Shown here: in pieces, positions 17,861 through 35,854 of the stretch | How positions within the stretch are numbered: position 1 is the first letter of the stretch | Layout: every line of letters begins with the position of its first letter | NCBI GenBank assembly: GCA_041946735.1 | Contig: JBHGAY010000005.1 | Location: 64,001-128,000 of the forward strand | Reading direction: 5' to 3' | DNA length: 64,000 nucleotides | DNA from: Candidatus Eiseniibacteriota bacterium | GTDB lineage: Bacteria; Eisenbacteria; RBG-16-71-46; CAIMUX01; VGJL01 | Translations under genes and position numbers: made by a program | The notes under the pieces: generated by a model | What the model was told of the DNA's origin: nothing | Databases searched by the model: none | The model's input: the letters and a program-made list of their open reading frames with translations, nothing else

Positions 17861-19420
17861 CTACCGGGTCAGCACCACCCGAGATGCGGCCGGGGATCCT
17901 CCACGATCGGGATCGATTCGGACGAAGTAGGTTCCGGCCGGCAATATGCGGCCTCGCTCGTCCCGCCCGTCCCATCGCGCGGCGCCGTCCCGCAGGACCA
18001 GCCTCCGCAGGAGACGCCCCGAGACGTCGAGCACACGGACCGCTGCGCTTCCGCCGTTCTTGATCCCCGCTCTGCCGGCCTTGCTCAGGCGGAGGTCGAT
18101 GGCCGCCCCGGCGGCGCCGGGATTCGGGTAGCAGACGAGCGGAGCGTTCCCGGCGAAGAAGGAGCCGCTTCCCGCGCCGACGGCCGCGTTGCCGGCGAGC
18201 GCATCCCGCAGCGCGAGCCCATCCAGGCGCCCGCTTCCCAACTTCCCGATGTAGGGCTCGTTCTCCACGATGTCATAGATGTCGATGACGCCGGTGCGAA
18301 CCAGCTCCCAGAGCGCCTCGCTCTCCAGTTCGGGAAACAGCGACAGGAGCAGCGCGGACTGCGCCGAGATGAAGGGGGTGGCGAACGAGGTCCCGGCGCC
18401 GATCGCATACTGGCCGTCGTGGTAAGGGGCGAGAACGCCCATTCCCGGAGCGGAGACCGAGACGTGGGAGTGGAAGTTCGAGAAGTCCGCCTTCACGTCG
18501 GCGGAGTCCAGGGCGGCGACCGAAAGCACGTTCGAATCGGAGGCCGGGAAGTACTGAGGGTTTTCGAGATTCATGTTGCCCGCGGCGGCCGCCATCACGA
18601 CCTGCAGCGTATCCGCGACCTCGATCTCACGGTGGATCACGAAGGAGCGATTCGTGAGCCCGAAGCTCATGTTGATCACATCCGCTCCGTGCTCGGTCGC
18701 GTACCGGATCGCTTTCGCCACGTCGAAGGTCGTCCCGGTCCCCTCGTCATCGAGGACCCGGATCGGCAGGATCTTTGCCCCCGGTGCGACCAGATGGACG
18801 ATCCCCGCGATCATCGTGCCATGTCCGGCGCCCTCGTCGATGGCGCCGTCATTGTCGTCGTCGAGGCCGTTCGCGCTGTCCGTCGGGTCCGCGTCGTCGG
18901 CCACGAAGTCCCACCCATCCGGCAATACCGCGCCCTCGAGCGCCGGGTGCTCGGCAAGGATTCCGGAGTCCAGGATCGCGACGGTGACACCGGAGCCGAT
19001 CGTCACCTCATGAATCTCGGCGAGATGGAGGCGCTCGGCCAGGCGTTGATCAAGGTAGTCGTCGATGGTTCCGCCCACGGCCGTCACGACCATCTGCCCG
19101 GTTCCTTCCGGGGTCTCGTTCTCGTAGGAATACTCGCCGTCCTCTACGTCGGGGTCGTCGAGGAGCGCGTCGAGAAGATCGTCCTCGTTTCCGCCGACCG
19201 GAACTTGCAGGAGGTAGAGGGGCGGCAGCGAATCGAGGGTCGTGGAGCCGTAGCGGGCGTTGATCGCCTCGATCGATGCCCCGGGGACCAGCTCGAGCTG
19301 CACCTGCCCGCTCTCCCAATCCGCCCACGCGGCGGAAGAGAAGAGCGCGAGCGTGAGAACGCCTGCGGCGGCGCACCAACGGAGGACCGGGCGGCCGGCG
19401 ATCGGCATTGGTCGTTTCAT
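17861..19420 (-). CDS. Secreted S8 (subtilisin-like) protease with C-terminal FlgD-Ig/CTD-like domain
   Basis: Signal peptide, VAILDSG, GHGTMIAG, AAAAGN, GTSFATP; C-terminal YPNP..DVSGRLLR..WDGRDERG..PAGTYFVR; RBS GGAGGAG. Confidence 0.92.
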   Translation of the reverse strand: MKRPMPIAGRPVLRWCAAAGVLTLALFSSAAWADWESGQVQLELVPGASIEAINARYGSTTLDSLPPLYLLQVPVGGNEDDLLDALLDDPDVEDGEYSYENETPEGTGQMVVTAVGGTIDDYLDQRLAERLHLAEIHEVTIGSGVTVAILDSGILAEHPALEGAVLPDGWDFVADDADPTDSANGLDDDNDGAIDEGAGHGTMIAGIVHLVAPGAKILPIRVLDDEGTGTTFDVAKAIRYATEHGADVINMSFGLTNRSFVIHREIEVADTLQVVMAAAAGNMNLENPQYFPASDSNVLSVAALDSADVKADFSNFHSHVSVSAPGMGVLAPYHDGQYAIGAGTSFATPFISAQSALLLSLFPELESEALWELVRTGVIDIYDIVENEPYIGKLGSGRLDGLALRDALAGNAAVGAGSGSFFAGNAPLVCYPNPGAAGAAIDLRLSKAGRAGIKNGGSAAVRVLDVSGRLLRRLVLRDGAARWDGRDERGRILPAGTYFVRIDPDRGGSPAASRVVLTR

Positions 19421-19495
19421 GTTGCGTTCTCCTCCGGGCATCGTGACCAGGATCGAATCCGATGACCAAGCATTATACATGGCGGGCTGCCGAGT

Positions 19496-22417
19496 TCATA
19501 CCGCCCCGGTGACGGCAAACGGCGCCCATTCCCAGGGATGCGGACGCCGTACGAGCGCCCGGCGCATCGCCCGACCCAGCGCTCGGGATGCGGAAGCGCC
19601 CGCGCCGAACGACTCGTAAAAGCCTTCCATCAGGTCGAGGGTCGATTCGTCCCCGACCGGCCAAAGGCTGCCGACGACCGTGGAGGCTCCGGCGCCGAGG
19701 AAGCCGCGCGCGAGGCCGACCCACTCCTCTCCGGCAGGAGCCGCCCCTCGCCCCGACGAACAGGCGGAAAGCACGACCGTCGATGCGGGCAGCCGCAGCC
19801 ACGCGAGATCGTGGACGAAGAAAGGGCCGTCGGCGAGCGCGAGGTACGAGTAGGCCGGGTTGTCGGAGCGCAGCGATCCGTGCGCCGCAATGTGGATGAG
19901 GCTCGCGTCTGGGCCGTTCTCCTTGAGTTGCGATGCCGTCGCGTCGACGTCGCGTCGAACGGTCCACCCCGGCAGGCGGGAGGACACCATCTCGATCTCT
20001 TGGCGCACGATCGGGAGATTCGGGGAGTCGACACCGCCGATCCAGGCAACCGGAGGCGTCGCGACCCGGCTGGACGCTTGGGCAATTCGCTGCGCGGGCG
20101 CCTGAGCCTGCGCGGGCGCACGCGCATCTCTGCCTCCGACTCCGGGGAGGCCTCTCCAGATTCTGGCGCTGGGGACGATCGCCAAGTCGCAACGCTCGAC
20201 GAGGTATCCGGAAGGATCGCGCAGCGCGTGCATCGGGACACGGTGCACCGCTCCGTGCGGCGAGATCATCCAGGAGCGGGAACGATCGATGCCCATCTCC
20301 TCGATCGGCTGCCACAGCAGCCGGTGGAGGTCGTGGAGGATCCGGTCCGCAGTCGAACGGAGAAGCTTGGCGGCTCCGGTCGTGCCGAGCGGGGCGAGCC
20401 GTCCCCGCCCTCCGGTCATCGCCGCTGCTCTCCACTGGAAGTCCAGCCGCTCGATCAGCTCGACGAGTCGAGCCGGCGTTTCGTCCGGGAGCCGACGCAC
20501 CGCGGCGCCGTGCTCGTCGATCACGACGGCCAGGGGGACTGTGCCGATGTGGTAGCTGACGAACCCCCACCCGGCCGGCAGGACGCTCGTGACGCCGGAG
20601 ACGGACGGAACTCCGTCCTCCATGGCGACTCCGCCCGGGCCTGCCGCGGTTCCTCCCTGTTCCTCCGCGAATTGCCGCAGCCCACGAGACCACTCCGACT
20701 CGGCCGTCCCAAGGCGCTCTCGCAGCGCGGCGATCTGCTCCCGTTCCGCCGCTGAACCCAGCTCCAGCCGGGCCAGACGCGCGTGGAGCCACGTGAGGCG
20801 CTGCCGCATGCTCTGTAGACGGCGGGACGAAGGAGTGTCGTGTTGCGAGAGCCCTGCCGCATGGAGGCCGCCAGGAGTCGGAAGGTTCCAGTCGGCCGAG
20901 GGAGAACGGAGGCGATCCCACAGTGCCTGGGCTCGGGAACGTTCCATGATCTCGAAGATGCGATCGACGGAGACGCTCCTTCTTCGCATCTCCAGAGCGA
21001 GGAGGCGGTCGTAGAGATGGCTCTTGTCCTCGAGGAAGGAGATCTTCGATTGCTCGGTCGGGATGCGGACCCGCAAGTCCTCGAGCTTGCCGATGGCCCT
21101 CCTGTAGCTCGTCACTGCCGCCGGCGTCGCGCCGGATCGCTCCTGAGCTTCACCGAGAGCCTCCAGGATCTGATACGCGGAGAGGGGATAGATCTTTTCC
21201 GGGAGCCGCCGGTGAAGTTCGCGCAGGCGGGTCGCGCCGCCGGCAGCGGCAGCCGGTCCTTGTCCCCCCCGCGCTTCCAGGCGGACGCGAAGCACCTCCG
21301 CCGCGGCCTCCCATCGCACGAGGCCGAGATCCGCGAATGCGGTCGCCGCACTCGCTGCGAGCTGAGCCGCCTCGGGCGTGTCCCCCCGGCGCGCGAGCGC
21401 CCTGCCAAGCAGCAGATCCATCAAAGCGACCCGTGCCTGGTTCTTCTCTTTCTGGAAGAGGGCGCGGGCGCGGCGGATCGTCCGGATCGCTTCGGAAGTC
21501 CGGCCGAGAGCGAGACGCGAAAGCCCTGCCTGGGCGAGTGCCGAGCCGCGGTCATACGCGAGGCCCGCAGCGGCGAACAGCGGAATCGCGAGCTCGCTCA
21601 GCTCCAGCGCTTCGGCGTGGAGGTTGAGCTGGTGATAGATCTCGGCGCGATTCAGGCGGCACGCGGCGAGAAAGGCAGGATGGTCGGTACGCTCGAAGTA
21701 CTCCGTGGCGCGAAGAAGCTGCGAAAGGGCGGAATCGAACTCGGCGCGCATCGCGTGAACGTAGGCGGCGTTCATGAGAGCTTGCGCGAGGAGCAGATGG
21801 TGTCCTGCCTCTTCGCACTCCTTCTCGATCCGTACGAAGAGGTCCAAGGCCTCTTGATCCCGGTCGAGCTGGGAGAGCGCCACTCCGCGGTTGATCTCGA
21901 GTCCGAGCACCGCGGCGTCACGAACTCCAAGGGATCGGAAGATCGCGGCGGCGCGGTCGTACTCCTCGAGAGCCGGACCGTAGCGATCCTCGCGAAACCG
22001 GCGGTTGCCGAGGTTCATCGCGAGTTTGGCGAGATAGGCGCGGTCGCCGGCCGCCTCGAGAAGACGTCGCGCCTCGCGAGCTGCCTCCTCGGCCTGGTCG
22101 AACCGGCCCATGAGCGCAAGGATGCTGGTGCGCCCTACGAGTAGTTGGCCCAGCAGCCCGTCGGCCCGCGCCTTTCGCCATGCGGCAGCGGCTTTTTCGT
22201 ACGAGCGATCCGCGGCTGCGAGGCGACCGGAGAAGAGCAGCGCCTCGGCCATCGCGCGGTGGCCCCAGCCAAGGGCGAGCGGGTCCTTCGAAGCTTGCGC
22301 CAGCGCGAGGGCTCGGCCGGCGATTCTCACGGCGGCCGGCGCATCGGAGTTGTAGAAGCGCGCGGCCTCGTCCCGCAGCGCCTCCACATCGGACGCCGTG
22401 GGGAGGGAAGGTTCCAT
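19496..22417 (-). CDS. TPR-CHAT caspase-like protease
   Basis: Long helical TPR-like N-terminus, ERSRAQAL, PHGAVHRVPMHAL, IHIAAHG (His), VVLSACSSG (Cys), SLWPVGD, HPWEWAPF. Confidence 0.93.
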   Translation of the reverse strand: MEPSLPTASDVEALRDEAARFYNSDAPAAVRIAGRALALAQASKDPLALGWGHRAMAEALLFSGRLAAADRSYEKAAAAWRKARADGLLGQLLVGRTSILALMGRFDQAEEAAREARRLLEAAGDRAYLAKLAMNLGNRRFREDRYGPALEEYDRAAAIFRSLGVRDAAVLGLEINRGVALSQLDRDQEALDLFVRIEKECEEAGHHLLLAQALMNAAYVHAMRAEFDSALSQLLRATEYFERTDHPAFLAACRLNRAEIYHQLNLHAEALELSELAIPLFAAAGLAYDRGSALAQAGLSRLALGRTSEAIRTIRRARALFQKEKNQARVALMDLLLGRALARRGDTPEAAQLAASAATAFADLGLVRWEAAAEVLRVRLEARGGQGPAAAAGGATRLRELHRRLPEKIYPLSAYQILEALGEAQERSGATPAAVTSYRRAIGKLEDLRVRIPTEQSKISFLEDKSHLYDRLLALEMRRRSVSVDRIFEIMERSRAQALWDRLRSPSADWNLPTPGGLHAAGLSQHDTPSSRRLQSMRQRLTWLHARLARLELGSAAEREQIAALRERLGTAESEWSRGLRQFAEEQGGTAAGPGGVAMEDGVPSVSGVTSVLPAGWGFVSYHIGTVPLAVVIDEHGAAVRRLPDETPARLVELIERLDFQWRAAAMTGGRGRLAPLGTTGAAKLLRSTADRILHDLHRLLWQPIEEMGIDRSRSWMISPHGAVHRVPMHALRDPSGYLVERCDLAIVPSARIWRGLPGVGGRDARAPAQAQAPAQRIAQASSRVATPPVAWIGGVDSPNLPIVRQEIEMVSSRLPGWTVRRDVDATASQLKENGPDASLIHIAAHGSLRSDNPAYSYLALADGPFFVHDLAWLRLPASTVVLSACSSGRGAAPAGEEWVGLARGFLGAGASTVVGSLWPVGDESTLDLMEGFYESFGAGASASRALGRAMRRALVRRPHPWEWAPFAVTGAV

Positions 22418-22435
22418 CGCTTGGGGAGCCGGTCC

Positions 22436-23137
22436 CTACTCGGGGTCCGAACCGCCGCTCGGACTTGCCGCCGCCGTTCCCAGATCGAGAGGGCCAACGA
22501 GGAGCGCCACGTCCCGCCACTCGATCCGGAGTCGCACTCCCTGAGCTGGGACCGATGGGAACCGGAACTCGCCCGTCTCCGCGAGCACGGCACGTCGAGC
22601 CCGGCCCCCTCGCTCCAGGAACACCTGCCCCGTCTCGCCCCCGAACTCGCCCTCGGAAGGCAGGAACTGGCCGCTGAGATCGACGCGTCCGCGCGCCCCT
22701 CGGTCGATCTGCAAATGCAGACTCCCGCGCGATGCTTCGAAGAGAAGACGCCGGGGTTGCATCGATGCGGCGGCCTGGGACCGAGTTCCGGGGATCACGG
22801 CCAACGTCCCGGTGTCGAGGCGCAGCGCCATCGGCACCCTTTCCAGCGCTTCGCGGGCGGTGGCCACGATCCGGGACGTCGTCCGGCTTCGGGATACGGC
22901 GCGGATCGCACCGGCCTCCCGGAGCGCGTCCATGGCGGCCTCTCGCGCTCGATCCGGCATCTTCTCGAGCGGCCCGGCGGCGAGCAGAGCGAGGGCCGTG
23001 CGGAATCCTTCGATCTTCGAACGGCAGGCGGGACAGCCTCCCGCGAGGTGAGACTCGATCCTCTCGCGCGCTTCATCCGTGCGCGATTCCCCCTCGCTGT
23101 ATTCCAGAAGCTGCTCGTCTCGAGGATGCGGCTTCAT
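22436..23137 (-). CDS. Putative soluble zinc-finger anti-sigma factor with C-terminal beta-sandwich
   Basis: HP..EQLLEY..HLAGGCPAC (zf-HC2-like); no TM segment; C-terminal LSGQ..GEFRF..VP; ATGA overlap with the sigma stop. Confidence 0.8.
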   Translation of the reverse strand: MKPHPRDEQLLEYSEGESRTDEARERIESHLAGGCPACRSKIEGFRTALALLAAGPLEKMPDRAREAAMDALREAGAIRAVSRSRTTSRIVATAREALERVPMALRLDTGTLAVIPGTRSQAAASMQPRRLLFEASRGSLHLQIDRGARGRVDLSGQFLPSEGEFGGETGQVFLERGGRARRAVLAETGEFRFPSVPAQGVRLRIEWRDVALLVGPLDLGTAAASPSGGSDPE

Positions 23138-23886
23138 TCGTGTCTCCCCCCTCGCCGGGTCGTCCCCGCGGTTCCGGTCTGGTCCTTCTGTTGACCAGAC
23201 GCGACGGGGAGGCGTTCTGATACGACAGCGCTGGCATCGGCGAGAATGCGCCGCATCTTCTCGAGACAGCGAGCGCGTGTCGGTCCGATGCTGCCGATCG
23301 GCAGGGCCGCGCGGCGGGCGACTTCCGCGTAGTCGAGCGGCGGATCCTCGTAGAAGAGCAGCCGGATCAGGAGCCGGCACCGTTCGGGAAGGCGGGAGAG
23401 CGCTTGACGCGCAGCCTGCGCCCGCTCGAGGGCGAGGTACATCTCCTCGGCGGGCGGCGCCGGGTCCTCGATCCGCCTCACCTCGTTCAGGCTCGACTCG
23501 GAGAGATCGTCGATCGGCGTCTCCTGCAGCTTCTTGCGCATCCGGAGGGTGTCGATCCCTTGGGTGTAGGCGATGCGGACCATCCACGGGACGATCTTGT
23601 CGAAGTCCCGCAAGTCGGCCAGATTCTTATAGATCGACAGGACGGCGTTCTGAAACGCGTCCTCGCGATCCTCCGCCCGCGTGAGACCGGCCCTGCGGCG
23701 AATCGTCGAGTAGATCAGGTCTCCGTATCGCCGGAGGAACTCCTCCCACGCGCTTTCCCGTCCCTCGCGGCATCCCCGGAGCAACTCCTCGACCGAAGTG
23801 GCAGCGAGGTTGCGGGGACGTGCGAGGGCCGGGAGGGCCAACGAGAGGCGAGCCTTCCCGGCGGTCCCGCCTGCCTTCCGGTGCAT
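23134..23886 (-). CDS. ECF sigma-70 factor
   Basis: Region 2 (AWEEFLRRYGDLIY, EDAFQ, PWMVRIA) and region 4 (LPERCRLLIRLLF..YAEVA..PIGSIGPTRARCL). Confidence 0.93.
   Translation of the reverse strand: MHRKAGGTAGKARLSLALPALARPRNLAATSVEELLRGCREGRESAWEEFLRRYGDLIYSTIRRRAGLTRAEDREDAFQNAVLSIYKNLADLRDFDKIVPWMVRIAYTQGIDTLRMRKKLQETPIDDLSESSLNEVRRIEDPAPPAEEMYLALERAQAARQALSRLPERCRLLIRLLFYEDPPLDYAEVARRAALPIGSIGPTRARCLEKMRRILADASAVVSERLPVASGQQKDQTGTAGTTRRGGRHE
23198..23223 (-). promoter_or_regulatory. Candidate ECF promoter inside the sigma 3' end, facing the anti-sigma/CHAT genes
   Basis: Minus strand GTATCAG-N15-CGTC. Confidence 0.45.
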
Positions 23887-23894
23887 AGCCGGCC

Positions 23895-23903
23895 AGGATA
23901 GCA
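23895..23903 (-). promoter_or_regulatory. Candidate extended -10 promoter for the sigma gene
   Basis: TGcTATCCT 8 nt before ATG 23886; no RBS. Confidence 0.45.
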
Positions 23904-24011
23904 CAGCCGGCCACGAGGTTCCCTTCAACCGGGCGACCGGCGGTGCGGGTAGGCGCGGGCCCACGCGCTGGCTTCCGCGCGGGCTTCTTCCATCCACGGT
24001 CGGAATTCCTG

Positions 24012-24036
24012 GTATCAGCGGAGCCGCCCCGCCGTC
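24012..24036 (+). promoter_or_regulatory. Candidate ECF promoter for the glycosyltransferase operon
   Basis: GTATCAG-N14-CGTC ending 32 nt before ATG 24069. Confidence 0.45.
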
Positions 24037-24068
24037 AGATCCAGTGCAAGGGTCGCATCGAGGGGGAC

Positions 24069-25436
24069 ATGCATCCAAACGGCTCGATTCGAATCCTGAT
24101 GTACTCGCACGATACCTTCGGGCTGGGGCACCTGACCCGCACCGTGCGTATCGCGCGAGCATTGCGGGCCCGTTACGGGACCGCTTCGATCCTCATTCTG
24201 ACCGGCTCCCCCGTGGCGACCTACATGCCGCTTCCCGAAGGCGCGGATCTCGTTAAGCTCCCGACGGTCGTCAAGGCAGGGGCGGAGCGCTACCGGGCCC
24301 GCGACCTCGAAGTGACCTTCGGCCAGGTGAAGCGTCTGCGTCGCGATCTGATACGGAGGGCGGCCGAGTCGTTCCGTCCTCACCTGTTCCTGGTCGACAA
24401 CGTCCCCCTCGGAATGAAGGGGGAGATCCTGCCCACCCTTCGATGGTTTCGGGCATCGAGTCCCGGAACGAAGATCGCGCTCGATCTTCGCGACATTCTC
24501 GACGATCCGTCGGTCATTCGCGAAGCCTGGCGCCGGGATGGAGTGCCGGAGGCGCTCGACAGCCTCTACGATCGCATCTTCGTTTTAGGGGACTCGGTCT
24601 TCTTCGACTCGGCAGCGGCCTACGACTTGCCGTCGTCGAAGACCGTCCATCTCGGGTACGGCACGCCGGAAGTGCGGGCATCGAAGCGGCCCGGAACGAA
24701 GAGGACCCGTGCGCCTCGAATTCTCCTCACCGTCGGAGGAGGCGGCGATGGCGCGGGGTTCCTGGAGCGGGCGCTCCTCGGCCTCTCGGACGGCGCTATC
24801 GACGAAGTGTCGGGGCGGCGGCCCCGGGCGTCGGCGCGGATCGAGGTCGTGACGGGTCCTCTCATGGATCCGGAGGGGAAGCGGCGGATCGCCGCACGGG
24901 CGATGCAGATTGGCGCGCTCGTTCACGAGTTCGTGCCCGATCTGCCGGCGCGGATGTCACGGGCCGACCTCGTCGTCGCGATGGCGGGATACAACACCTG
25001 CTGCGAGATCCTATCCCACGCCCGGGCCGCGCTCGTCGTGCCTCGCCGGACCCCGAGGATCGAGCAGCTCCTGCGCGCCGAGGCGTTCGAGCGCCGAGGT
25101 CTGGTTCGAGTCCTCCCCTCGATCGAATCGGAGCCGGGCGAGATCGCCGCCGCGATCCGGCGGGCCTTGGAGCAAGGCCCGTGGATCGACCAGGGGCAGA
25201 TGCCGGTGGTCGGCGGGTTCGCGCGACTCGCTGAGGAGGCGGGCTCGCTCTGCCCGGAGCTCGAGCGCCCGCCGGCGGTCGTGGTCTCGCAGCCCGCGCA
25301 ACGCGCGCGCGCCGCGCCCGCCCCATCCCCGCGGGGTGGGGGCGCAAGCGCGCCATCCACGGGCGGCCACGACGTGTGGCTCCGGCCGGGGACCTCGGCC
25401 CGCATCCCGGCGGGCTCGCGCCAGTCGGAATCCTGA
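24069..25436 (+). CDS. GT-B glycosyltransferase (COG4671-like, GT28-C-like C-terminus)
   Basis: MYSHDTFGLGHLTR, LVDNVPLG, LRDILD, TVGGGGDG, AMAGYNTCCE, EQLLRA. Confidence 0.88.
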   Translation: MHPNGSIRILMYSHDTFGLGHLTRTVRIARALRARYGTASILILTGSPVATYMPLPEGADLVKLPTVVKAGAERYRARDLEVTFGQVKRLRRDLIRRAAESFRPHLFLVDNVPLGMKGEILPTLRWFRASSPGTKIALDLRDILDDPSVIREAWRRDGVPEALDSLYDRIFVLGDSVFFDSAAAYDLPSSKTVHLGYGTPEVRASKRPGTKRTRAPRILLTVGGGGDGAGFLERALLGLSDGAIDEVSGRRPRASARIEVVTGPLMDPEGKRRIAARAMQIGALVHEFVPDLPARMSRADLVVAMAGYNTCCEILSHARAALVVPRRTPRIEQLLRAEAFERRGLVRVLPSIESEPGEIAAAIRRALEQGPWIDQGQMPVVGGFARLAEEAGSLCPELERPPAVVVSQPAQRARAAPAPSPRGGGASAPSTGGHDVWLRPGTSARIPAGSRQSES

Positions 25437-25444
25437 GGACCGCC

Positions 25445-26602
25445 GTGCGTGACTCTCGAACCAAACGGAACGGCTCAGCGGCGCGCCTCTCGGTGTGCCT
25501 CTCGGCGGCCTTCTCGGCGGGCCATCTCTCGCCGGCGTTCTCGGCGGCCCGCCTCCGCGCTGGCTGCCTCGCGATCCTTCTCCTCGCGGGAGCTCTCCTC
25601 GGCGCGCCTGCCGGCTCGAGCGCCCGCTCCTCCCCGCTCCGTCCATCGTCCTGGGGAGGAGAAGTGGCTTTCGGCTGGGATTCGAATCTGCTTTCTTCGT
25701 CCACCGCCGAAACGCGGGCTTTCGACACCGGCGGAGGGGACTCCTTCTTCGCCGTCGATCGTCTGGAGGATGCGCGCGCCCGTGCCGGCTTCTGGGGTCG
25801 CTGGGAGGTGCCGTCGTTCTACAAGAGCCTTCGCATCGAGGGCTCGTACGAACGCTTCGAGGCGCTTCACGAGTCGATCGTCGGGTCGGGAGTGTATGCC
25901 ATCGGGCTGCGCCAGAAGCTCCCCGATGGATCGAGGATCGACCTGTCCGCTGCGTATTGTCCCCAGATCTATCTCCGTCACCGGACGAACAAGGAAGCCC
26001 TCCCGGGCGAGCCGCAATTCCGTCCGGAGGCGTCGCGCCAGATGGAGCTGGAGATCGCGCACTCCCGGCCTTTCGCCGGCACGCGCCTGGAGGCTTCGAT
26101 CGACTACGAGACCGAACGGAGGATTCGCTGGTTCCGCGAACGGGACGAAGAGACGTGGACCGCCGGCCTCAATGTCGAAGTGCCCCTCGTCTCGTCGATC
26201 GATCTCATCGGCGCCGGGTTCGTCGGAGGCAGCCGCACCGTGGCGCCGAATCGCGAGCCTGGGCTCGACCGCTCCCATCGGCAGGCGATCACCGGGCTGC
26301 GCCTGAGCGCCGAGCCGGGCCTGCCGGCCGGTCCCTGGGAGATGCAGGCGGGCACCCGGTGGAAGTTCCGCGACTACACGACAGACGATCCGACCGACTC
26401 GAGCCGCTATCACCGCAACGACCGGATCGTCAGCTGGGATGTTCGCATCGGCCGTCCCATGGGCGCATTCGTTCCCTTCGTCTCCTACGAAGGGAGCTTG
26501 CGCCGGGTGCATCTGCCGTCCGGGGCACAATCCTCCAACGAGGAGGGGGAGTATGACGACACCCTGATCTCGCTCGGGGTGCAATGGGAGTTCTCAAGGT
26601 GA
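25445..26602 (+). CDS. Putative outer-membrane beta-barrel protein
   Basis: Signal-like N-terminus, GWDSNL, alternating aromatic/polar strands, C-terminal SLGVQWEF; GTG start inferred. Confidence 0.65.
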   Translation: MRDSRTKRNGSAARLSVCLSAAFSAGHLSPAFSAARLRAGCLAILLLAGALLGAPAGSSARSSPLRPSSWGGEVAFGWDSNLLSSSTAETRAFDTGGGDSFFAVDRLEDARARAGFWGRWEVPSFYKSLRIEGSYERFEALHESIVGSGVYAIGLRQKLPDGSRIDLSAAYCPQIYLRHRTNKEALPGEPQFRPEASRQMELEIAHSRPFAGTRLEASIDYETERRIRWFRERDEETWTAGLNVEVPLVSSIDLIGAGFVGGSRTVAPNREPGLDRSHRQAITGLRLSAEPGLPAGPWEMQAGTRWKFRDYTTDDPTDSSRYHRNDRIVSWDVRIGRPMGAFVPFVSYEGSLRRVHLPSGAQSSNEEGEYDDTLISLGVQWEFSR

Positions 26603-28089
26603 TTCAAAGGAAAGGCAACGGTTGCGCGCTGCGCATCGCTCCGAGGTCGCAGCCTCTCCGCGCGGTCCTTCTCGCCGTCCTGCTCTCCTCGATCGCGGGG
26701 ATGGCGGCACCCCTCAGGGCGTCGCTCGATTCGGGAAGCTGGCCGATGTTCCATCGCGATGCGGGCCACACGGGGCTTTCTCCCCTCCTCGCACCGGAGA
26801 TCGGCGTCATCGCCTGGACGAGATCGCTGAGCGACACGGTGGAGTTCTCCTCCCCCGCCGTCACATCGTCGGCGACGGTTTTGGTCGGTGACCAGGGAAA
26901 GGAGCTTTGGGCGTTCGATCTGTGGGGGAACGAGCGCTGGAACTACCACGCGCTCGGGAACATCCGCTACAGCAGCCCGGCAGTCAGGTCCAACGGGACG
27001 GTCTACTTCGGGGCGGGAGACGGCAAACTCTACGCGGTCTGGCCGAGCGGACGCCTGGCTTGGAGCGTGCAAACAGGCGCAGCCGTGAAGACATCCCCGG
27101 CGATCGCGCCCGATGGGACGATCTACGCCGGCAGCGACGATGGCAGTCTCTGGGCCGTTCGCGCCGACGGATCGGTCAAGTTCACGTTCGCGACCGGCGA
27201 CACCGTCCGCTCCTCGCCCGCCCTGGCAGCGGACGGCACCATCGTCTTCGGATCGCATGACGGGATGGTGAGAGCGCTTTGGCCCAATGGCAGCCTTCGC
27301 TGGGAGGTGGCTACGGGCGGCCCGATCAAGACCGCGCCCGCGATCCGGCAGAACCATGTCATCGTCGCGTCGTCCGATGGCTTCCTCTACGACTTCTCGA
27401 TCGACGGGACGTTCAACTGGGCGACCTACACCGGGAACAATCTCCGCTCCTCGCCTGCATTCGGCTCCACCGGGAAGATCTACCTGGGCGTCGACACGAA
27501 GATCTCCTGCTTCCACGACGACGGGAGCCCCTCGTTCTCTTACGAGACCGGAGCGAAGATCTACTCCTCGCCCGCCGTAACTTCCGACTACGACGGCCAG
27601 GACATTGTCCTCTGCGGCTCGGACAGCGGGTACCTCTACGCGGTCAAAGCGGGCACGCTCCTCTGGTCGTGCAACTTGGGAGCGCCGGTCCGCTCCTCGC
27701 CCGCGATCGGACCGAACCGGATCGCCTACGTGGGAGCCATGAACGGCAACCTCTACGCGATCGGGTACGTGAATCCCGCCTCCGCCGGCGGCGACGCCGC
27801 CACTTCGACGGTAGGCCTCGCCCTCAGCCCCAACCCCGTCCGAGGCGACTCGCCCGTTTCGATCCACCTGCTCGATCCGCGGGGGGCGGGTCGGCTCGGG
27901 GACGCGCCGATCCTGATCCTCGATCCTTCCGGACGAAGGATCCGTTCGCTTCAGGCTGCGGCGGGGGAGGGGATCGCCGTGTGGGACGGCCGGGACATGG
28001 CCGGCCGGCGAGTGCCGGCGGGAGTCTACTGGATCCGTGTCGGCGAGCTCGATCGACGGACGAGCACGCGTCTCGTCCGGATACCTTGA
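26599..28089 (+). CDS. Secreted PQQ/BamB-like beta-propeller protein with FlgD-Ig/CTD-like domain
   Basis: WPMFHRDAGHTG, about 8 SSPA..GTIYxGSxDGxLYA repeats, C-terminal SPNP..WDGRDMAG..PAGVYW; GTGA overlap with the previous stop. Confidence 0.88.
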   Translation: MIQRKGNGCALRIAPRSQPLRAVLLAVLLSSIAGMAAPLRASLDSGSWPMFHRDAGHTGLSPLLAPEIGVIAWTRSLSDTVEFSSPAVTSSATVLVGDQGKELWAFDLWGNERWNYHALGNIRYSSPAVRSNGTVYFGAGDGKLYAVWPSGRLAWSVQTGAAVKTSPAIAPDGTIYAGSDDGSLWAVRADGSVKFTFATGDTVRSSPALAADGTIVFGSHDGMVRALWPNGSLRWEVATGGPIKTAPAIRQNHVIVASSDGFLYDFSIDGTFNWATYTGNNLRSSPAFGSTGKIYLGVDTKISCFHDDGSPSFSYETGAKIYSSPAVTSDYDGQDIVLCGSDSGYLYAVKAGTLLWSCNLGAPVRSSPAIGPNRIAYVGAMNGNLYAIGYVNPASAGGDAATSTVGLALSPNPVRGDSPVSIHLLDPRGAGRLGDAPILILDPSGRRIRSLQAAAGEGIAVWDGRDMAGRRVPAGVYWIRVGELDRRTSTRLVRIP

Positions 28090-28105
28090 GGCATGATTTG
28101 AGGCG

Positions 28106-28813
28106 ATGAAGAGAATCGTTCCATCTCTCGCGGCCCTCCTGCTCCTGCCGGTCCTCGGCTGCTCGCCCGACCTGCGGGAGGAGCTGGGCCCCATCGTTCC
28201 GTTTCCGAACGTTCAGGGCACGGTCGTACGGGCCGGCGCCCCGGCCGAGGGGCTGAAAGTGAGGCTCCTCGAAACGGCGACCGATTCGGCGAGGAGCGAG
28301 GACCGAACGGCGCCAGACGGCCGCTACGCATTCAGCGAGGTGGGAGCGGGGGAGTGGACTCTGGAAGCGCGCTCGAACGACCCTGCCGACTTCTCGAGCG
28401 TGACCTATCCATTTGCGTTCGGGACTCCGGACACCTCGCTCGAGGCCCCGCCGCTCGAGATGTCGTTGCGCGGTCTCGCGCTTGGCTCGCCCGCCGACGG
28501 AGACACCTTGCCTGTGGCGAGTCCCGCAGCCCCGCTCACCTTCTCCTGGATCGCGCCGCAGCTTCCTCCGCAGGTCCAGGGCGTGACGATCCAGGTGCGC
28601 GTCTATGACGGTCAGGGCGATCCGGTCTGGTATTCCGAGAAGGTCGGCGCGGCGAGCGTCCGCTGGAACGGCCTGCAGAACCGGGGATCGGGGACGAACC
28701 GGCCGGCCTCGCCCGGCGCCTACAGCTGGAAGCTCCGGATGGAGATCGATGGCTCGGTGATCGAATGGACCACCTCCCGCCGGTCGTTCCTCTTCTCGGA
28801 GTCGATCCCATGA
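28106..28813 (+). CDS. Lipoprotein with carboxypeptidase-regulatory-like and FlgD-like domains
   Basis: Lipobox VLGC; TAPDGRYAFSEV..GEWTL; VRWNG..PGAYSWKL. Confidence 0.75.
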   Translation: MKRIVPSLAALLLLPVLGCSPDLREELGPIVPFPNVQGTVVRAGAPAEGLKVRLLETATDSARSEDRTAPDGRYAFSEVGAGEWTLEARSNDPADFSSVTYPFAFGTPDTSLEAPPLEMSLRGLALGSPADGDTLPVASPAAPLTFSWIAPQLPPQVQGVTIQVRVYDGQGDPVWYSEKVGAASVRWNGLQNRGSGTNRPASPGAYSWKLRMEIDGSVIEWTTSRRSFLFSESIP

Positions 28814-31800
28814 GCCCGGTGCCAGGAGATGATCGGGGGAGAGGACCGATCGCGTATGTCGTGAAGATGTTTCCCCGACTCTCGGAGACATTCGTCACAA
28901 ATGAGCTTCTCGAGCTGAAGCGCCGCGGCCTCGACGTGCGGGTGCTTTCGCTGCTCCCGCCGACCGGCGCCGTCCAGTCGGAAGAGTCTCGCGCGCTGCT
29001 CGCGGATACGATCCAGGTGCCTCACTACCGGAACGGAACCGGGTTCGCTTCCCTCGTCCGATCGCATCGCCGTCTCTTGCGCCGGGATGCCGGCCGCTAT
29101 CTGCGGACCTTTGGGCTCGTCGCGCGCCGGTTTTCGGGATCTGCCTGGAAGAGGTTCCTGCAGGCGGGCGCTGTGGCGGAATGGTGCTTGGACAACGAGG
29201 TCCGACACCTGCATGCCGGCTTCGCCCACGTTCCCGCCAGCGTCGTCTGGTGGGCGAGCCGCCTGACCGGGATTCCATGGAGCTTTGCCGCTCATGCGAA
29301 GGACCTCTACCTCTCGGATCGTCGATCGCTTCGCAACAAGATGGACGCTGCCCGCTTCGTGTGGACCTGCACGGAAGCGAACGGCCGCTACCTCCGATCG
29401 CTGGGCAGCGCGACGGATGTCCACGTCGGGTATCACGGAGTCGACCTGGAGCGTTTCGGCCCGCCGCTTCACCCGACGTCTCGCGAAGGGTCAGGGTCCC
29501 GAGCGGGCGGTGCATCGATGGGCGACGGGCCGCCCACGATCCTCGCCGTCGGGCGGCTCGTCCCGAAGAAAGGCTTCGACGACCTGCTTCGCGCGGCCGC
29601 GATCCTGCAGGAGAAGCGGCTGGACTTCCGTCTCGTCTTCGTCGGCGATGGACCGCAGCGCGGCCCCCTGACGGACCTCGCCGGTCGCCTCGGCGTCGCG
29701 GGTCGCGCGCGGTTTCTCGGGAGCCTGCCTCCCGATCAGGTCAGCCGGGAATATGCGGGCGCCCGGCTGCTCGTGCTCCCTTCCATCGTCCTCGACAATG
29801 GGGACCGCGACGGAATCCCCAACGTCCTCGTGGAAGCGATGGCGATGGGGGTGCCGGTCGTCAGCACCCGGGTCTCGGCCATCCCCGAGCTGATCCGCGA
29901 CGGCGAAAACGGTCTGCTCGTCGATCCGGGCGCTCCGGCGCAGCTCGCGCGCGCGATCGACGCGGTGCTGGAGGATGCGCCGGCCGCGGCAGGCCGGGCG
30001 GCGCGCGCTCGCCTCGACGTGGCCGAGCGGTTCGATCTTCATGCGAACAGCGGAGCTCTGGCCGAACTGCTTCGCCGCCACTGCAGAGCGACGCGCGCTC
30101 TGTACGTGAGCGCCGACCTGGGAGTGCCGGTCCGGGGACACAAGGGCGCCTCGGCCCACGTCCGCGCGATCGCCAACGGTCTCGTGGAGGCGGGCCTCGC
30201 CGTGCGCGTCGTGACTCCATCGGCTGGCGAGGAGGCTTCGGAGGGCGGGAATCGATTCGACCCCCCCATCGACATCGTCTCCTGCCCTCGGTGGGCCGGC
30301 GCCCTCGTTGACCGCTCCCGGGAGCGCCGGTCTCTCTACGCATGGGCCAAAGAGGTGAGGCGCCTCGCATGGAACGGCCCGATGCATCGCCGGGTGCAGC
30401 AACTGCTCTCCGACTTCCGCCCCGACTTCGTGTACGAGCGCTATTCGCTCTGCTCGATCGCGACCGGACTCGCGTGCCGTCGCCGCCGGGTCCCATGGCT
30501 CCTCGAGGTCAACGCCCCGCTGGCGGATGAGGAGGCGGCGTATCGCGGGCTTCGGTTCCGGTGGCTGACGCGGCGACTCGAGCGCTGGATCCTCCGCCAT
30601 GCCGACCACGTATTTGTGGTCTCGCACCCGCTCCGGAGATGGGCTCTCGATGCCGGCGTATCTCCCGAGCGGTTGTCGGTCCTTCCGAATGCGGTCGACA
30701 CCGGGCTCTTCCGTCCCGGCGTCCCGGGCGTTGTCGAGAGGCGCCGCTCGTGGGAGTGGAGCGAAGAGGAGATCATCGTTGGCTTCGCTGGCTCCCTCAA
30801 GCCATGGCACGGAGGAGCTCTGCTGCTCGCCGCGTTCGAGCGCGCCATGGAAAGGGATCCGCGCCTCCGCCTCTGCATCATCGGGGACGGTCCGGAGAGG
30901 AAGGAGATCGAAAGGCGTGCGCGGCGCCGCGGCCTCGCCTCCGTCGTCCGCCTGACCGGTGCGGTGCCTCAGCGGGAAGTTCCGTCCATGCTCCGGGCAT
31001 GCGACATCCTCGTCGCCCCGTACCTGCCGCAGCCGAACCCCTACTTCTCGCCGCTGAAGGTCCTCGAGTATCTCGCCGTCGGGCGGCCCGTCCTCGCTTC
31101 CCGGATCGCGGACCTACCGGACCTCGTCACACCGGAATGCGGTCTTCTCCTCCCTCCCGGGGATCGTGCGGCTCTGCGCGATGCGATCCTCGACCTCGCC
31201 CGAGACCCGCGTCGGCGTGAGGCGATGGGGAAGGCGGCCGCCGACCGCGCGGCTCGCGAGGATTGGTCGGGCCGGGTCCGAACGATTCTCCTCGAGGCGC
31301 GACAGCGGCGGAGCGGCGGCGCGGCCCGGCCGCCCGCCACGTCGACGCGCGTCGCCTACGTGCTCAAGATGTTTCCCCGCTTCTCGGAGACTTTCATCGT
31401 CTCGGAGATCGTCGAGCTGGAGCGCCAGGGGCTCGAGATCCGCGTCTTCTCGATGAAGCAGCCGGCAGGCCGGCGGCAGGACGATGTGGACCGGGTCCGA
31501 GCGCGGGTGAGCGTGCTGCCGTGCGGCCTGGCCGCCCGCGGCGCGGTCCCCGCCGCCATCCGATGCCTGATCCACCATCCGCGCGGCTCGTTCCGCGCCT
31601 TCCGTTTCGCCGTCGGGCGCCGCGACCACCGGGCGCTCGTCAAGCTGTGGCAGGCGGCATTCGTCGCCGACCGCTCGCGGCGCGAGGGGATCGGGCACCT
31701 CCATGCGCACTTCGCGAGCGGTCCGACGCGAGTCGCGAAGCTCGCCTCGATGATCAGCGGGATTCCGTTCTCCTTCACGGCGCATGCGAAGGATCTCTAC

Positions 31801-32823
31801 TGGAGCGGGCACCAGCACACCGAGAGCCACAAGCTGAAGAAGCGGGTGAAGCTCGCGCGTTTCGTCGTCTCGGTCAGCAAGCGCAACGAGGACTTCCTCG
31901 GCAGCCTCGGATTCAGGGTCAAGGAGGGGAGGATCCGGACGATCTATCTCGGGCTGCGCCTCGAGGAGTTCCCCTTCGTGCCCCCCTCGGCCCGTCCGTC
32001 CGTTCGAGTGCCTCTGATTCTCGCGGTCGGGCGCCTGGTCGAGAAGAAGGGATTCCATCCGCTGATCGAAGCTTTGGCAACGTTGCGCGACCGTGGGGTC
32101 GCGTTTCGATGCATCGTGGCCGGTGAGGGTCCGGAGAAGGACCGGCTGCAGGATCGAATCCGAACGGCGCGGCTCGCCGGTCGGGTCCGTCTGGCAGGAC
32201 CGGTGCCTTTGACTCGCCTGAAGAGCCGTCTTTACCCCGCCGCGCGCGTCCTGGCGCAGCCATGCGTCGTAAGCGGCGACGGGGACCAGGACGGGATCCC
32301 CATCGTGCTCATGGAGGCGATGGCGAGCGGCCTGCCAATCGTCTCCACGCGCGTTTCGGGGATCCCTGAAGCGATCGAGGACGGGGTGGAAGGATTTCTG
32401 ACCGAGCCGGGGGACGTCGAGGCCCTCGCCGGCCGGATCGAACAGCTCCTCACGCGCCCCATCCTCGCGGAGCGGATCGCGCACGCCGCCCGGGCGCGGG
32501 CGGAGCGGCAGTTCAACCTGCACGCCAACGTCGGGTCGTTGCGGAAGCTGTTTCTTCGATCGCTCGCGGGATGGCCCGCCCCCGCTGTGCCGCCAGGGAT
32601 CTCCCGGCCGGCCGAACGATCCGAAGCGGGAGCGGAAGCGGGAATCGCGCCATCCGGGATCTTCGTGCCCGAGGAGGAGACCGCGCCGGCGCAGGCCGCC
32701 CCGGCGCAGGCACGGGGCGGCTGCGTGTCCGCCGCCGTTCCGGCCCATGCCGAGGCGGCTCTCCTCGCCGGCGCTCCTTGCGAGGCGCGCGGACAGTCCA
32801 CCGCCTCCCGGGCCGGCTCATGA
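28810..32823 (+). CDS. Triple GT4 glycosyltransferase fusion
   Basis: Three complete GT-B modules in one frame, with signatures RDGIPNVLVEAMA, FSPLKVLEYLA and QDGIPIVLMEAMA; ATGA overlaps at both ends. Confidence 0.92.
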   Translation: MSPVPGDDRGRGPIAYVVKMFPRLSETFVTNELLELKRRGLDVRVLSLLPPTGAVQSEESRALLADTIQVPHYRNGTGFASLVRSHRRLLRRDAGRYLRTFGLVARRFSGSAWKRFLQAGAVAEWCLDNEVRHLHAGFAHVPASVVWWASRLTGIPWSFAAHAKDLYLSDRRSLRNKMDAARFVWTCTEANGRYLRSLGSATDVHVGYHGVDLERFGPPLHPTSREGSGSRAGGASMGDGPPTILAVGRLVPKKGFDDLLRAAAILQEKRLDFRLVFVGDGPQRGPLTDLAGRLGVAGRARFLGSLPPDQVSREYAGARLLVLPSIVLDNGDRDGIPNVLVEAMAMGVPVVSTRVSAIPELIRDGENGLLVDPGAPAQLARAIDAVLEDAPAAAGRAARARLDVAERFDLHANSGALAELLRRHCRATRALYVSADLGVPVRGHKGASAHVRAIANGLVEAGLAVRVVTPSAGEEASEGGNRFDPPIDIVSCPRWAGALVDRSRERRSLYAWAKEVRRLAWNGPMHRRVQQLLSDFRPDFVYERYSLCSIATGLACRRRRVPWLLEVNAPLADEEAAYRGLRFRWLTRRLERWILRHADHVFVVSHPLRRWALDAGVSPERLSVLPNAVDTGLFRPGVPGVVERRRSWEWSEEEIIVGFAGSLKPWHGGALLLAAFERAMERDPRLRLCIIGDGPERKEIERRARRRGLASVVRLTGAVPQREVPSMLRACDILVAPYLPQPNPYFSPLKVLEYLAVGRPVLASRIADLPDLVTPECGLLLPPGDRAALRDAILDLARDPRRREAMGKAAADRAAREDWSGRVRTILLEARQRRSGGAARPPATSTRVAYVLKMFPRFSETFIVSEIVELERQGLEIRVFSMKQPAGRRQDDVDRVRARVSVLPCGLAARGAVPAAIRCLIHHPRGSFRAFRFAVGRRDHRALVKLWQAAFVADRSRREGIGHLHAHFASGPTRVAKLASMISGIPFSFTAHAKDLYWSGHQHTESHKLKKRVKLARFVVSVSKRNEDFLGSLGFRVKEGRIRTIYLGLRLEEFPFVPPSARPSVRVPLILAVGRLVEKKGFHPLIEALATLRDRGVAFRCIVAGEGPEKDRLQDRIRTARLAGRVRLAGPVPLTRLKSRLYPAARVLAQPCVVSGDGDQDGIPIVLMEAMASGLPIVSTRVSGIPEAIEDGVEGFLTEPGDVEALAGRIEQLLTRPILAERIAHAARARAERQFNLHANVGSLRKLFLRSLAGWPAPAVPPGISRPAERSEAGAEAGIAPSGIFVPEEETAPAQAAPAQARGGCVSAAVPAHAEAALLAGAPCEARGQSTASRAGS

Positions 32824-34697: not shown

Positions 34698-35854
34698 GGT
34701 TCCATCTGGAGGGAAGCCTGTCTCCCGATCCCGCGGTGCGAGGAGTGGAGCGGCTTCTGGAACCGGACGGGGCGCGGCGATTCGTGCGAGACCTGCGGGC
34801 GAACGGGATCGCGAGCCGGTCCGCACGCGTCCGCGCTGCCGTCGTCAAGCAACGGCCCGGCCAGCGCGCCGTCCTGCGGATCGAGGTGGAAGAAGGCGGA
34901 CCGGGAGATGGCAGCGATGCGGACATCACCCGGGACGAGGCAGTCGCGGTGTGGTACGCGAAGCTCTGCCGGTCCTCTTCGGCGTGGAAACGTCTCTACG
35001 ATCCCGGCCTCTTCGAGCTGGCGGACCGCGCCGCGCAGGCGGGTGTCCAGGTTCCGTTGCCGGTCGTCTGGCTCCCGCGCTTCCGGGCGCTCCTCACGAA
35101 GTACGCGCCGGGCACTCCTCTCGTCGGCATCCTCGGTACGGAGACTTCCGGCGACACGCTGGCGCAATTCGGGCTGGCGCTGGGACGCCTGCACCTGCTT
35201 CTCCCTTTGTGCGGCGAGGCGCGAGGCCCGGCGTTCGAGAGAGAGCAGATCCTTCATGCACGGGATCGCTACTTGAAGGACAACCGGCCGGAGCTGCTCG
35301 CCTCCTTCGACGAGAGGATGCGCGACTGGTGGGAGCAGCGTCCGGCGGAACTCGACGAAGCGGATCGCCCGCTCGTCTGTCTCCACGGGGACCTTCATCT
35401 CCGGCAGATCCTGTGCCGTGATCGGGACGAGGAGGCTTTCCCATTCGCGCTCCTCGACTGGGACAGCGTCTGTTCGGGGGATGCCGAGCGGGACGTGGCG
35501 AATCTCCTGGCGCATCTGCTGCTCGAGGCCGAAGCAGGACGCTGCCCGCGCGAGAAGTGCTACGCGGGGATCCGCCGCCTGCTCCATGGGTACGAGGCCG
35601 TTCGGTCCCTCGACCCTGCCCGCACGAACTGGTACCTGACGGGGACGCTGCTGCGCCTGGCCGCGCTCCACGCATCGCCCGTCTTCGGACCGATCACCCC
35701 TGTCCCGGCCTCACTCTCTCCGGCGATTCTCGCCGCCACGCGGAGGGTGGAGACGTTTGGCGGCGGGAACGGGATCGAAGGGTCCTCGGCACGCGAGACG
35801 CTCGAGAAAGGCGCGCCCTCGTGGCCGATAGGCAACGGTTCGGGTCTGTGCTAG
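34685..35854 (+). CDS. APH/choline kinase-like phosphotransferase
   Basis: WYAKL, LHGDLHLRQIL, LLDWD, GDAERDVANL. Confidence 0.85.
   Translation: MVSMRFHLEGSLSPDPAVRGVERLLEPDGARRFVRDLRANGIASRSARVRAAVVKQRPGQRAVLRIEVEEGGPGDGSDADITRDEAVAVWYAKLCRSSSAWKRLYDPGLFELADRAAQAGVQVPLPVVWLPRFRALLTKYAPGTPLVGILGTETSGDTLAQFGLALGRLHLLLPLCGEARGPAFEREQILHARDRYLKDNRPELLASFDERMRDWWEQRPAELDEADRPLVCLHGDLHLRQILCRDRDEEAFPFALLDWDSVCSGDAERDVANLLAHLLLEAEAGRCPREKCYAGIRRLLHGYEAVRSLDPARTNWYLTGTLLRLAALHASPVFGPITPVPASLSPAILAATRRVETFGGGNGIEGSSARETLEKGAPSWPIGNGSGLC

Follow-up and report, generated by a model that had tools for sequence, protein, structure and literature searches.

A conserved GTATCAG motif as candidate promoter of an ECF54-like sigma factor circuit in Candidatus Eisenbacteria

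A promoter-like motif at both ends of a sigma factor gene

We analyzed a 64,000 nucleotide (nt) stretch of a Candidatus Eiseniibacteriota genome (contig JBHGAY010000005.1, positions 64,001 to 128,000 of the forward strand; hereafter the window, numbered from its first letter), which carries the bipartite element GTATCAG-N14/15-CGTC at two places around a gene for a sigma factor of the extracytoplasmic function (ECF) type. From comparison with related genomes we consider it likely that these sites are promoters of this sigma factor, which resembles the group ECF54, and that they are part of a circuit comprising an anti-sigma factor, a CHAT protease, a glycosyltransferase (GT) operon and secreted proteins. 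Both sites would be read by the sigma factor encoded between them, and possibly also by a paralogue encoded on another contig. The sigma factor would be transcribed constitutively as a leaderless mRNA from a separate, conserved extended -10 promoter, and the gene that follows (hereafter the +1 gene) would encode a soluble anti-sigma factor that holds sigma. Its release would most likely proceed by cleavage of the anti-sigma factor by a cytoplasmic TPR-CHAT protease, which is the most speculative step of the scheme and is proposed by analogy. The freed sigma factor might then act on three sets of targets: an internal promoter before the anti-sigma, CHAT and S8 genes, giving negative feedback and renewal of the sensor; the divergent promoter of an 11.8 kb glycosyltransferase/ABC/kinase operon; and dispersed promoters before secreted proteins with a C-terminal domain of the type IX secretion system (T9SS) type.

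The features of the locus on which this reading is built are the following.

23137..23886, minus strand: ECF sigma factor gene, 250 amino acids (aa), sigma2 plus sigma4; stop codon at 23134-23136
22439..23137, minus strand: +1 gene, 233 aa, candidate soluble anti-sigma factor with an N-terminal H-x4-C-x2-C helical domain and a C-terminal carboxypeptidase-regulatory-like beta domain
19499..22417, minus strand: TPR-CHAT caspase-like protease, 973 aa (Pfam CHAT E 6.5e-55, TPR_12 E 2.2e-15)
17864..19480, minus strand: secreted S8 subtilase with FlgD_ig-type C-terminal domain (Pfam Peptidase_S8 E 6.6e-43, FlgD_ig E 1.2e-4)
24069..35854, plus strand: row of co-directional genes, 11.8 kb, all on the same strand, divergent from sigma
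23198..23223, minus strand: P(+1), promoter-like motif GTATCAG-N15-CGTC (site 1), 61 nt upstream of the +1 ATG, inside the non-conserved 3' tail of the sigma open reading frame (ORF)
24012..24036, plus strand: P(GT), promoter-like motif GTATCAG-N14-CGTC (site 2), 32 nt upstream of the GT28-like ATG at 24069

Both motif copies were found on the strands, at the coordinates and with the spacers given in a preliminary description of the window, and the GT/ABC/kinase row of about 12 kb described there corresponds to the 11.8 kb listed above. The sigma ORF matched Pfam Sigma70_r2 (E 4.6e-6, 26.8 bits, cut-off 24) and, slightly below the cut-off of 24.1, Sigma70_r4 (E 1.9e-4, 21.3 bits), with no further domain, and thus has the sigma2 plus sigma4 architecture of ECF sigma factors. 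The ATG of the +1 gene (23137) shares bases with the sigma stop codon in an ATGA overlap at 23137-23134. The divergent row encodes, in this order, a GT28-like glycosyltransferase, an unknown ORF, a PQQ-like propeller with C-terminal domain, a CarboxypepD_reg protein, a triple GT4 protein (1352 aa), an ABC exporter and an APH-like kinase. No terminators above chance were found (7 versus 7.0 expected), and a scan of 17500-36500 for terminators and sigma-70 consensus sequences revealed nothing exceeding shuffles.

Conservation of the motif in related loci

We surveyed 41 genomes, among which G000 denotes the genome of the window, fetched the 20 loci with the best sigma homologues (E-values down to 6.5e-56) and mapped the window proteins on them. 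Sigma, +1, CHAT and S8 genes followed each other in the same order in 15 of these loci. Two others had the S8 gene divergent at position -1, one was cut by a contig end after the CHAT gene begins, one (L046) ended inside the sigma gene, and one (L044) encoded sigma and S8 only. A CHAT-TPR gene followed the +1 gene in 18/18 fetched loci having the latter, counting the one cut by the contig end. These 18 loci and the window make up the 19 loci in which the motif was evaluated; one of the 20 fetched loci is a second module of G000.

A bipartite element of the form GTATCA(G)-N14/15-CGAC/CGTC was present in the stretch between sigma4 and the +1 gene in 19/19 loci. The -35 block read GTATCA in 18 loci and ATATCA in one, with G at position 7 in 13, and the spacer measured 14 nt in 13 loci and 15 nt in six. 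The -10 block was CGAC in 17 loci and CGTC in two, the window being one of this pair, and after two free bases was followed by C (14/19), T (17/19) and G (14/19). Both window sites carry the CGTC originally proposed as -10 element, but the consensus is CGAC followed by nnCT(G), with the T of CGTC in the minority. The element begins 50-147 nt before the +1 start codon, and the rest of the spacer could not be aligned between loci. Against a scoring matrix derived from the sites that other genomes have between sigma and +1, site 1 of the window scored 18.8 (rank 11 in its genome). An alternative register for this site, with a spacer of 12 and a matching downstream CTGG, fitted the consensus more poorly and was dropped.

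The motif is intergenic in most loci; in the window, the sigma ORF runs across it. Sigma orthologues stop about 20-30 nt past sigma4, and in G027 a TAG occupies the place that is read through in the window. Window sigma residues ~217-250 (about 34 codons), which hold site 1, are a lineage-specific read-through tail past the lost usual stop.

Besides the window, L044 and L049 are the only loci among those fetched where the GT operon adjoins the module, both with a conserved gene order GT28-orf2-PQQ-CarbReg-GT4x3. GTATCAA-N14-CGAC is present in both on the GT strand, at distances of 35 and 43 nt from the start of GT28 compared to 32 nt in the window, and the motif is hence upstream of GT28 in 3/3 loci with GT28 divergent from sigma. 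A MAFFT alignment of the three complete sigma/GT28 intergenic regions was poor and did not align the window motif with the other two, and motif positions were for this reason taken from pattern scans. GT28 orthologues were detected in 17/41 genomes (E<=1e-30), and the best matrix match within 400 nt upstream was taken in each. A GTATCA -35 was located at most 140 nt upstream in nine of the 17 (G000, G001, G005, G013, G019, G025, G017, G034 and G038). Among these were GT28 genes that are not linked to the module: the operon of G025 is 345 kb away on the same contig, and those of G013 and G019 are on other contigs. As the motif also precedes unlinked GT operons, adjacency does not account for its being shared. 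The earlier proposal that one ECF-type motif is common to the anti-sigma/CHAT genes and the divergent GT operon, which was to be checked by motif conservation at orthologous loci, is supported by this conservation.

Motif frequency and co-occurrence with the sigma factor

GTATCAG-N13-17-CGTC occurred twice in the window versus 0.09 expected, and 0/100 shuffles reached two or more. In this genome, GTATCA had 295 occurrences on both strands of 4.89 Mb, and 26 of the sites had CG[AT]C at the consensus spacing (N15-16) versus 14, 9 and 9 when the spacing was shifted in steps of 4 nt. The genome-wide enrichment that had been suggested as a check depended on the pattern applied. The exact pattern of the preliminary description was at background (7 matches versus 6 in a reversed control), so that frequency alone is not decisive. 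The stricter consensus derived from the orthologues, GTATCA-N15/16-CGAC-NN-CT, was enriched both in this genome (6 versus 1) and across the 41 genomes (97 versus 31). We grouped the genomes by the E-value of their best sigma homologue and not by motif. The strict pattern had at least two matches in 19/19 genomes with E<=1e-38, a match in 6/13 genomes with E between 1e-27 and 1e-37, and none in the nine genomes with E>1e-15, in which the reversed control had four. Comparison of the genomes in this way shows the motif itself, where it lies, how its blocks are spaced and that it co-occurs with the sigma family.

Several results weigh against reading the sites as promoters of this sigma factor. 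Eight of the 17 GT28 orthologues had no GTATCA -35 upstream (three with the variants GTATCT or GTATTT, five with nothing similar). The GT site of the window had a matrix score of only 12.0, a level at which the genome contained 158 matches versus 112 in the reversed null, and above 18 the enrichment was modest (13 versus 6). Motif pattern and the hidden Markov model (HMM) used below for C-terminal domains were designed after seeing the data, and the counts overstate independence because the genomes are kin. Locus L044 (G005) encodes neither a +1 nor a CHAT gene and has no motif after sigma. Finally, two paralogous modules of G000 share the motif, so that the sigma factor driving the GT operon is not distinguishable between them. 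The backing for the GT site of the window comes from orthology among the sequences and not from its matrix score.

These results bear on two other explanations. The first is chance: two regions of about 200 nt may share a 7-mer, and CGTC is common in DNA of 68% G+C. The background frequency of the exact pattern, the null-level score of the GT site and the choice of the motif after looking would fit with this, but the element recurs at the orthologous position in all 19 loci and before nine of 17 GT28 genes while the flanks have diverged. GTATCA is moreover rare in the genome, the two window matches far exceed expectation, and the same -35 was independently published for ECF54 (PMC7826278, supplement). 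We consider chance highly improbable. The second explanation is that the motif serves some DNA-binding regulator as operator, or is a promoter for a sigma factor other than the product of the adjacent gene. That this sigma factor recognizes the motif we infer from co-occurrence only; the genome encodes at least seven sigma homologues at E<=0.001, and the motif does not lie ahead of the sigma gene, unlike in usual ECF autoregulation. On the other hand, the motif has, like a promoter, two fixed blocks separated by a spacer of variable sequence but constant length (14-15 nt), in strict orientation and 27-147 nt before start codons. The motif is furthermore confined to genomes with a close sigma homologue (19/19 versus 0/9), is always present in the module and matches the ECF54 prediction. 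An operator or a foreign sigma factor is on this evidence unlikely, and promoters of the ECF54-like sigma factor remain the better reading of both sites.

Locus L044 retains the sigma gene, the divergent GT operon with its motif and an S8 gene directly after sigma, and may be a natural "regulator-less" variant. The second sigma/+1/CHAT/S8 module of G000 (L045) is located on contig C34 at ~171960-188622 and encodes a sigma factor 43% identical to that of the window. A GTATCAT-N14-CGAC of its own precedes the +1 gene, and in divergent orientation a GTATCAG-N14-CGAC is found 153 nt ahead of a gene for a RecD2-like helicase. Upstream of the motif, its sigma-to-+1 spacer (oriented coordinates 8604-8730) contains near-tandem copies of a unit (GGCCGGCAGGCCGGGATGGAG...) roughly 38 nt long.

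The +1 protein and the CHAT protease

The 19 +1 orthologues could be aligned over their full length (alignment A1). An N-terminal H-x3/4-C-x2-C was present in 14 of them and CxxC in 15. Matches to CarboxypepD_reg at the C-terminus, all below the Pfam cut-off, were obtained for 3/11 relatives and 10/72 wider-family representatives, and sub-threshold matches to zf-HC2 at the N-terminus (E 0.001-0.03) for 1/11 and 4/72. No membrane segment was visible in the sequence of the +1 protein. An exhaustive protein search with the alignment retrieved 4815 representatives at E<=0.001, of which 1252 reached E<=1e-10 and 83 reached E<=1e-30; a word-indexed protein search with the same alignment retrieved only four proteins. 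The two closest named homologues carry the NCBI label Candidatus Eisenbacteria bacterium. Ten wider representatives that we looked up were nearly all metagenome proteins, by which a link to Actinobacteria is neither shown nor excluded, and one member of a wider cluster is named 'anti-sigma factor RsiW' by JGI/IMG.

A model of the complex between sigma residues 28-216 and +1 residues 1-85 scored 0.80 compared to 0.00 for the best of three controls, a score which was attained by 116/157 solved complexes and 2/215 mismatched pairs. The modelled contacts involve both sigma2 and sigma4, the runs agreed in at least 97% of contacts, and the pLDDT of the partner was at least 87. Since many complexes of ECF sigma and anti-sigma factors have been solved, the result probably reflects likeness to them. 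The model supports binding of the +1 protein to sigma, and the +1 protein is predicted to be an anti-sigma factor. Class I ZAS anti-sigma factors (RsrA/SigR, ChrR/RpoE) possess an N-terminal helical domain with a His/Cys-x2-Cys motif, and the N-terminal domain of the +1 protein resembles them in its modelled placement between sigma2 and sigma4. It differs in the His-to-Cys spacing of the window protein (x4, whereas the ZAS motif is His-x3-Cys-x2-Cys), in the sub-threshold zf-HC2 matches and in the C-terminal beta domain of the CarboxypepD_reg type.

The third protein of the module matched Pfam CHAT end to end, and no N-terminal signal or membrane segment was seen on reading its sequence. By eye, it contains a His (AAHG) and a Cys (SACSSG) that we take to be the caspase-like dyad. 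We propose the protease release step because of the precedent of Csx29, a TPR-CHAT protease which was shown by experiment to cut the sigma-binding inhibitor Csx30 and thereby to activate CASP-sigma (Strecker et al. 2022, PMC10028731). As in that system, a TPR-CHAT protease is here encoded together with an ECF sigma factor and a predicted soluble inhibitor. In the Csx29 system, Csx30 binds sigma by its N-terminal domain, cleavage relieves the inhibition, and the locus has sigma-dependent promoters. The systems differ in that inspection of the present module revealed no CRISPR genes, and Csx30 (565 aa, from the same paper) is unlike the 233 aa +1 protein in architecture.

The promoter might also depend on the sigma factor with release proceeding without CHAT, for example if the H-x3/4-C-x2-C anti-sigma factor itself senses thiol or redox stress and CHAT and S8 are outputs only. 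RsrA, an anti-sigma factor with direct thiol/redox sensing, is the model for such a mechanism. The Cys pair is present in 15/19 +1 proteins, and CHAT and the secreted S8 protease are encoded downstream of a predicted sigma-dependent promoter as outputs would be. Its loss in the other four is a point against the circuit favoured here, and also against redox sensing, as these four loci still have module and motif. The invariable position of CHAT-TPR after the +1 gene in the 18 fetched loci and the precedent of a TPR-CHAT protease cleaving a sigma inhibitor (PMC10028731) likewise speak against this alternative. We regard release without CHAT as a credible, though somewhat unlikely, alternative to the CHAT-mediated release preferred here.

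Candidate promoters before the sigma and S8 genes

The sigma gene itself has another type of upstream element.

23895..23905, minus strand: TGTGCTATCCT, extended -10 (TGnTAnnnT) that precedes the sigma ATG by 8 nt; candidate promoter of housekeeping type

TGnTAnnnT was located 6-8 nt before an in-frame ATG of sigma in 17/21 loci (window and L044-L061), while chance would produce roughly 0.04 TGnTAnnnT per 170 nt stretch scanned, as estimated from base composition. An extended -10 abutting the start codon is a signature of leaderless mRNA transcribed by the housekeeping sigma factor. The conservation of this arrangement suggests that the ECF sigma factor is probably made constitutively from a housekeeping-type promoter as a leaderless mRNA. 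A search for the ECF motif upstream of the sigma gene found GTATCA on the same strand within 1.6 kb in only 4/21 loci and at unrelated distances (window, -468; L044, -163; L053, -699; L050, -1059), and sigma autoregulation via this motif was rejected as a general feature. The ECF promoter, placed behind sigma, would accordingly feed back on the anti-sigma, CHAT and S8 genes only, and not on sigma.

The window copy at -468 is an additional occurrence of the -35 block.

24329..24354, minus strand: GTATCAG-N15-CTTC-ACCTGG, extra copy on the sigma strand, within the coding sequence of GT28 and at -468 from the sigma ATG

It has a matrix score of 17.9 and forces the codons CTG ATA on the GT28 strand. 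This copy is window-specific, with no positional equivalent in L049 and a different one in L044. The window contains five GTATCAG copies in total, four of them within 21170-24354, versus 1.31 expected for the whole window.

For the S8 gene, a third and weaker site had been proposed.

19476..19501, minus strand: GTATGAA-N15-TGTA, third proposed site; rejected as ECF site

The string is present in the sequence; its matrix score is 2.8, and it spans the CHAT stop codon (its TGA) and the first ATG of the S8 ORF. No equivalent was found in 15/15 orthologous CHAT-to-S8 junctions, where the best scores ranged from -3.3 to 7.2. We rejected it as an ECF promoter on account of its score, its lack of conservation and its overlap with the CHAT stop codon and with TGTATAAT. 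The latter (19479..19472, minus strand), in the gap between CHAT and S8, is a perfect housekeeping-type extended -10 and contains the TGTA of the proposed site. The true S8 start is probably ATG 19420, which lies behind GGAGGAG and opens a signal-peptide-like sequence, and not the first ATG at 19480. S8 is probably co-transcribed with CHAT.

Dispersed motif sites and secreted proteins

The sigma factor, its regulators, the protease and the GT operon had been described as a single regulon block of about 18 kb, a view that does not hold as motif sites are dispersed across the genome. In this genome, an ORF with a FlgD_ig/Por_Secre_tail-type C-terminal domain was found at most 350 nt downstream of 10 of the 26 motif sites, compared to 31/269 other GTATCA sites and 82/1500 random positions. 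These counts were obtained with a crude rule for calling ORFs and with an HMM for which six of the proteins served as seed, and two of the 10 motif sites are inside such genes. The domain is very common in this genome, with at least 150 matches. A gene for a UDP-glucose/GDP-mannose dehydrogenase was also found downstream of a motif site.

For the other genomes, we took 40 of about 75 strict-pattern sites outside the modules and GT28 (all of G025, G009, G006, G031, G039, G013, G004 and G005, and one of G040). An ORF with the C-terminal domain, detected by the same HMM, followed 20 of the 40 sites, and Pfam identified FlgD_ig, Por_Secre_tail or both in 16/31 complete downstream ORFs. To the points on the negative side should be added that the random base rate for such ORFs was measured in G000 only. 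Recurrent cargo across genomes comprised BNR/sortilin-type propellers, Reg_prop propellers, CHRD repeats and SBBP propellers. The regulon thus appears, as far as its candidate promoters can be followed by sequence, to be scattered over the genome and to include many secreted proteins whose C-terminal domain is of the T9SS type.

In G025, the paired motif sites on contigs C25/C40 and C12/C42 (L086-L090) are identical or near-identical (GTATCACGCTGCGTTTGCATCCGAC twice; GTATCAGAAATCTTGGATTATGCGAC and GTATCAGGAAATCCTGATTATGCGAC) and precede large proteins with the C-terminal domain. These pairs look like recent gene duplications that took the promoter along.

Relation to known sigma factor systems

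The group that the window system resembles most by its motif and neighbours is ECF54, which according to the supplement of PMC7826278 is 100% actinobacterial. In the description given there, position +1 is taken by a carboxypeptidase-regulatory-like protein and position +2 or -1 by a subtilase, CHAT with TPR repeats is encoded nearby, and the group is stated in the same source to lack 'a putative anti-sigma factor'. The predicted promoter has a -35 of GTATCAG and a -10 of CTCC (PMC7826278). Casas-Pastor et al. 2021 (PMC7826278) name Huang et al. 2015 as the origin of these features, and a 2022 review lists ECF54 under 'regulated by proteolysis', there as a proposal only (PMC8999054). Our literature search found no experimental study of any ECF54 member and no member outside Actinobacteria. 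As GTATCAG had already been published for ECF54, the preliminary description had rediscovered a known predicted -35.

Besides this -35, the window system shares with ECF54 a CarboxypepD_reg-like +1 protein (by sub-threshold matches), a subtilase and a CHAT protein with TPR as neighbours. It differs in several respects. The relatives found here are labelled Candidatus Eisenbacteria and not Actinobacteria, and the gene order is +1, CHAT, S8. The conserved -10, CGAC/CGTC followed by nnCT, seems to differ from the published CTCC; among the 19 sigma-to-+1 sites a CTCC string spans the junction in few only, e.g. CGACTCCT. The +1 protein is here a predicted anti-sigma factor, while ECF54 is described without one, and the motif is located behind the sigma gene and not ahead of it. 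Atlas neighbours of the window sigma were generic ECF clusters, commonest in Acidobacteriota and with Actinomycetota at rank 6. We therefore call the window system ECF54-like in another phylum, a likeness in sequence of the -35 and in neighbours and not a placement in the clade.

A further comparison is DdvS/DdvA of Myxococcus xanthus, likewise an ECF sigma/anti-sigma pair tied to a CHAT domain, which controls a neighbouring gene island (PMC11506125, PMC6061681). DdvA is described as a transmembrane anti-sigma factor with CBASS/CRISPR defence targets, whereas no membrane segment was seen here in the anti-sigma and CHAT proteins and the predicted targets are glycosylation genes and secreted proteins.

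Taken as a whole, the module might give the first regulon and wiring scheme of an ECF54-type switch, here outside Actinobacteria: a constitutive leaderless sigma factor, a soluble zinc-finger-like/CarboxypepD_reg-like anti-sigma factor, release by CHAT, and a glycosylation/export operon with dispersed T9SS-type beta-propeller proteins as targets, for a coordinated remodelling of a glycosylated cell surface. In its entirety, with the promoter role, the cognate sigma factor, the anti-sigma binding and the protease step that we infer, this picture is possible rather than probable. Judged by sequence, its new elements would be the phylum, the promoter placement together with the separate leaderless sigma promoter, the anti-sigma assignment, and the GT operon and C-terminal-domain proteins as targets. 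ECF54 is among the ECF groups proposed, in the sources cited, to be controlled by a protease in place of an anti-sigma factor. If the actinobacterial +1 proteins are homologous to those described here, the published statement that ECF54 has no anti-sigma factor would need revision. The loci offer ECF54 a testable promoter consensus (GTATCAG-N14/15-CGAC-nnCT), a candidate anti-sigma factor and a target set. The layout with a predicted sigma-dependent promoter behind the sigma gene is unusual and would direct feedback to inhibitor and protease and not to sigma. Few regulatory circuits of the uncultured Eisenbacteria can be deduced from sequence alone, and this is one of them.

Further observations

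A separate search of genome contigs with the sigma protein retrieved distant ECF sigma factors only (23-38% identity; Bacteroidota, Anaerolineales), which were not used. In several relatives (L067, L068 and others), the open frame that holds the GT28-like gene measures 820-850 aa, compared to 455 aa in the window. GT28 and the unknown ORF next to it (window ~25376-26602) thus seem to be fused in those relatives and split in the family of the window.

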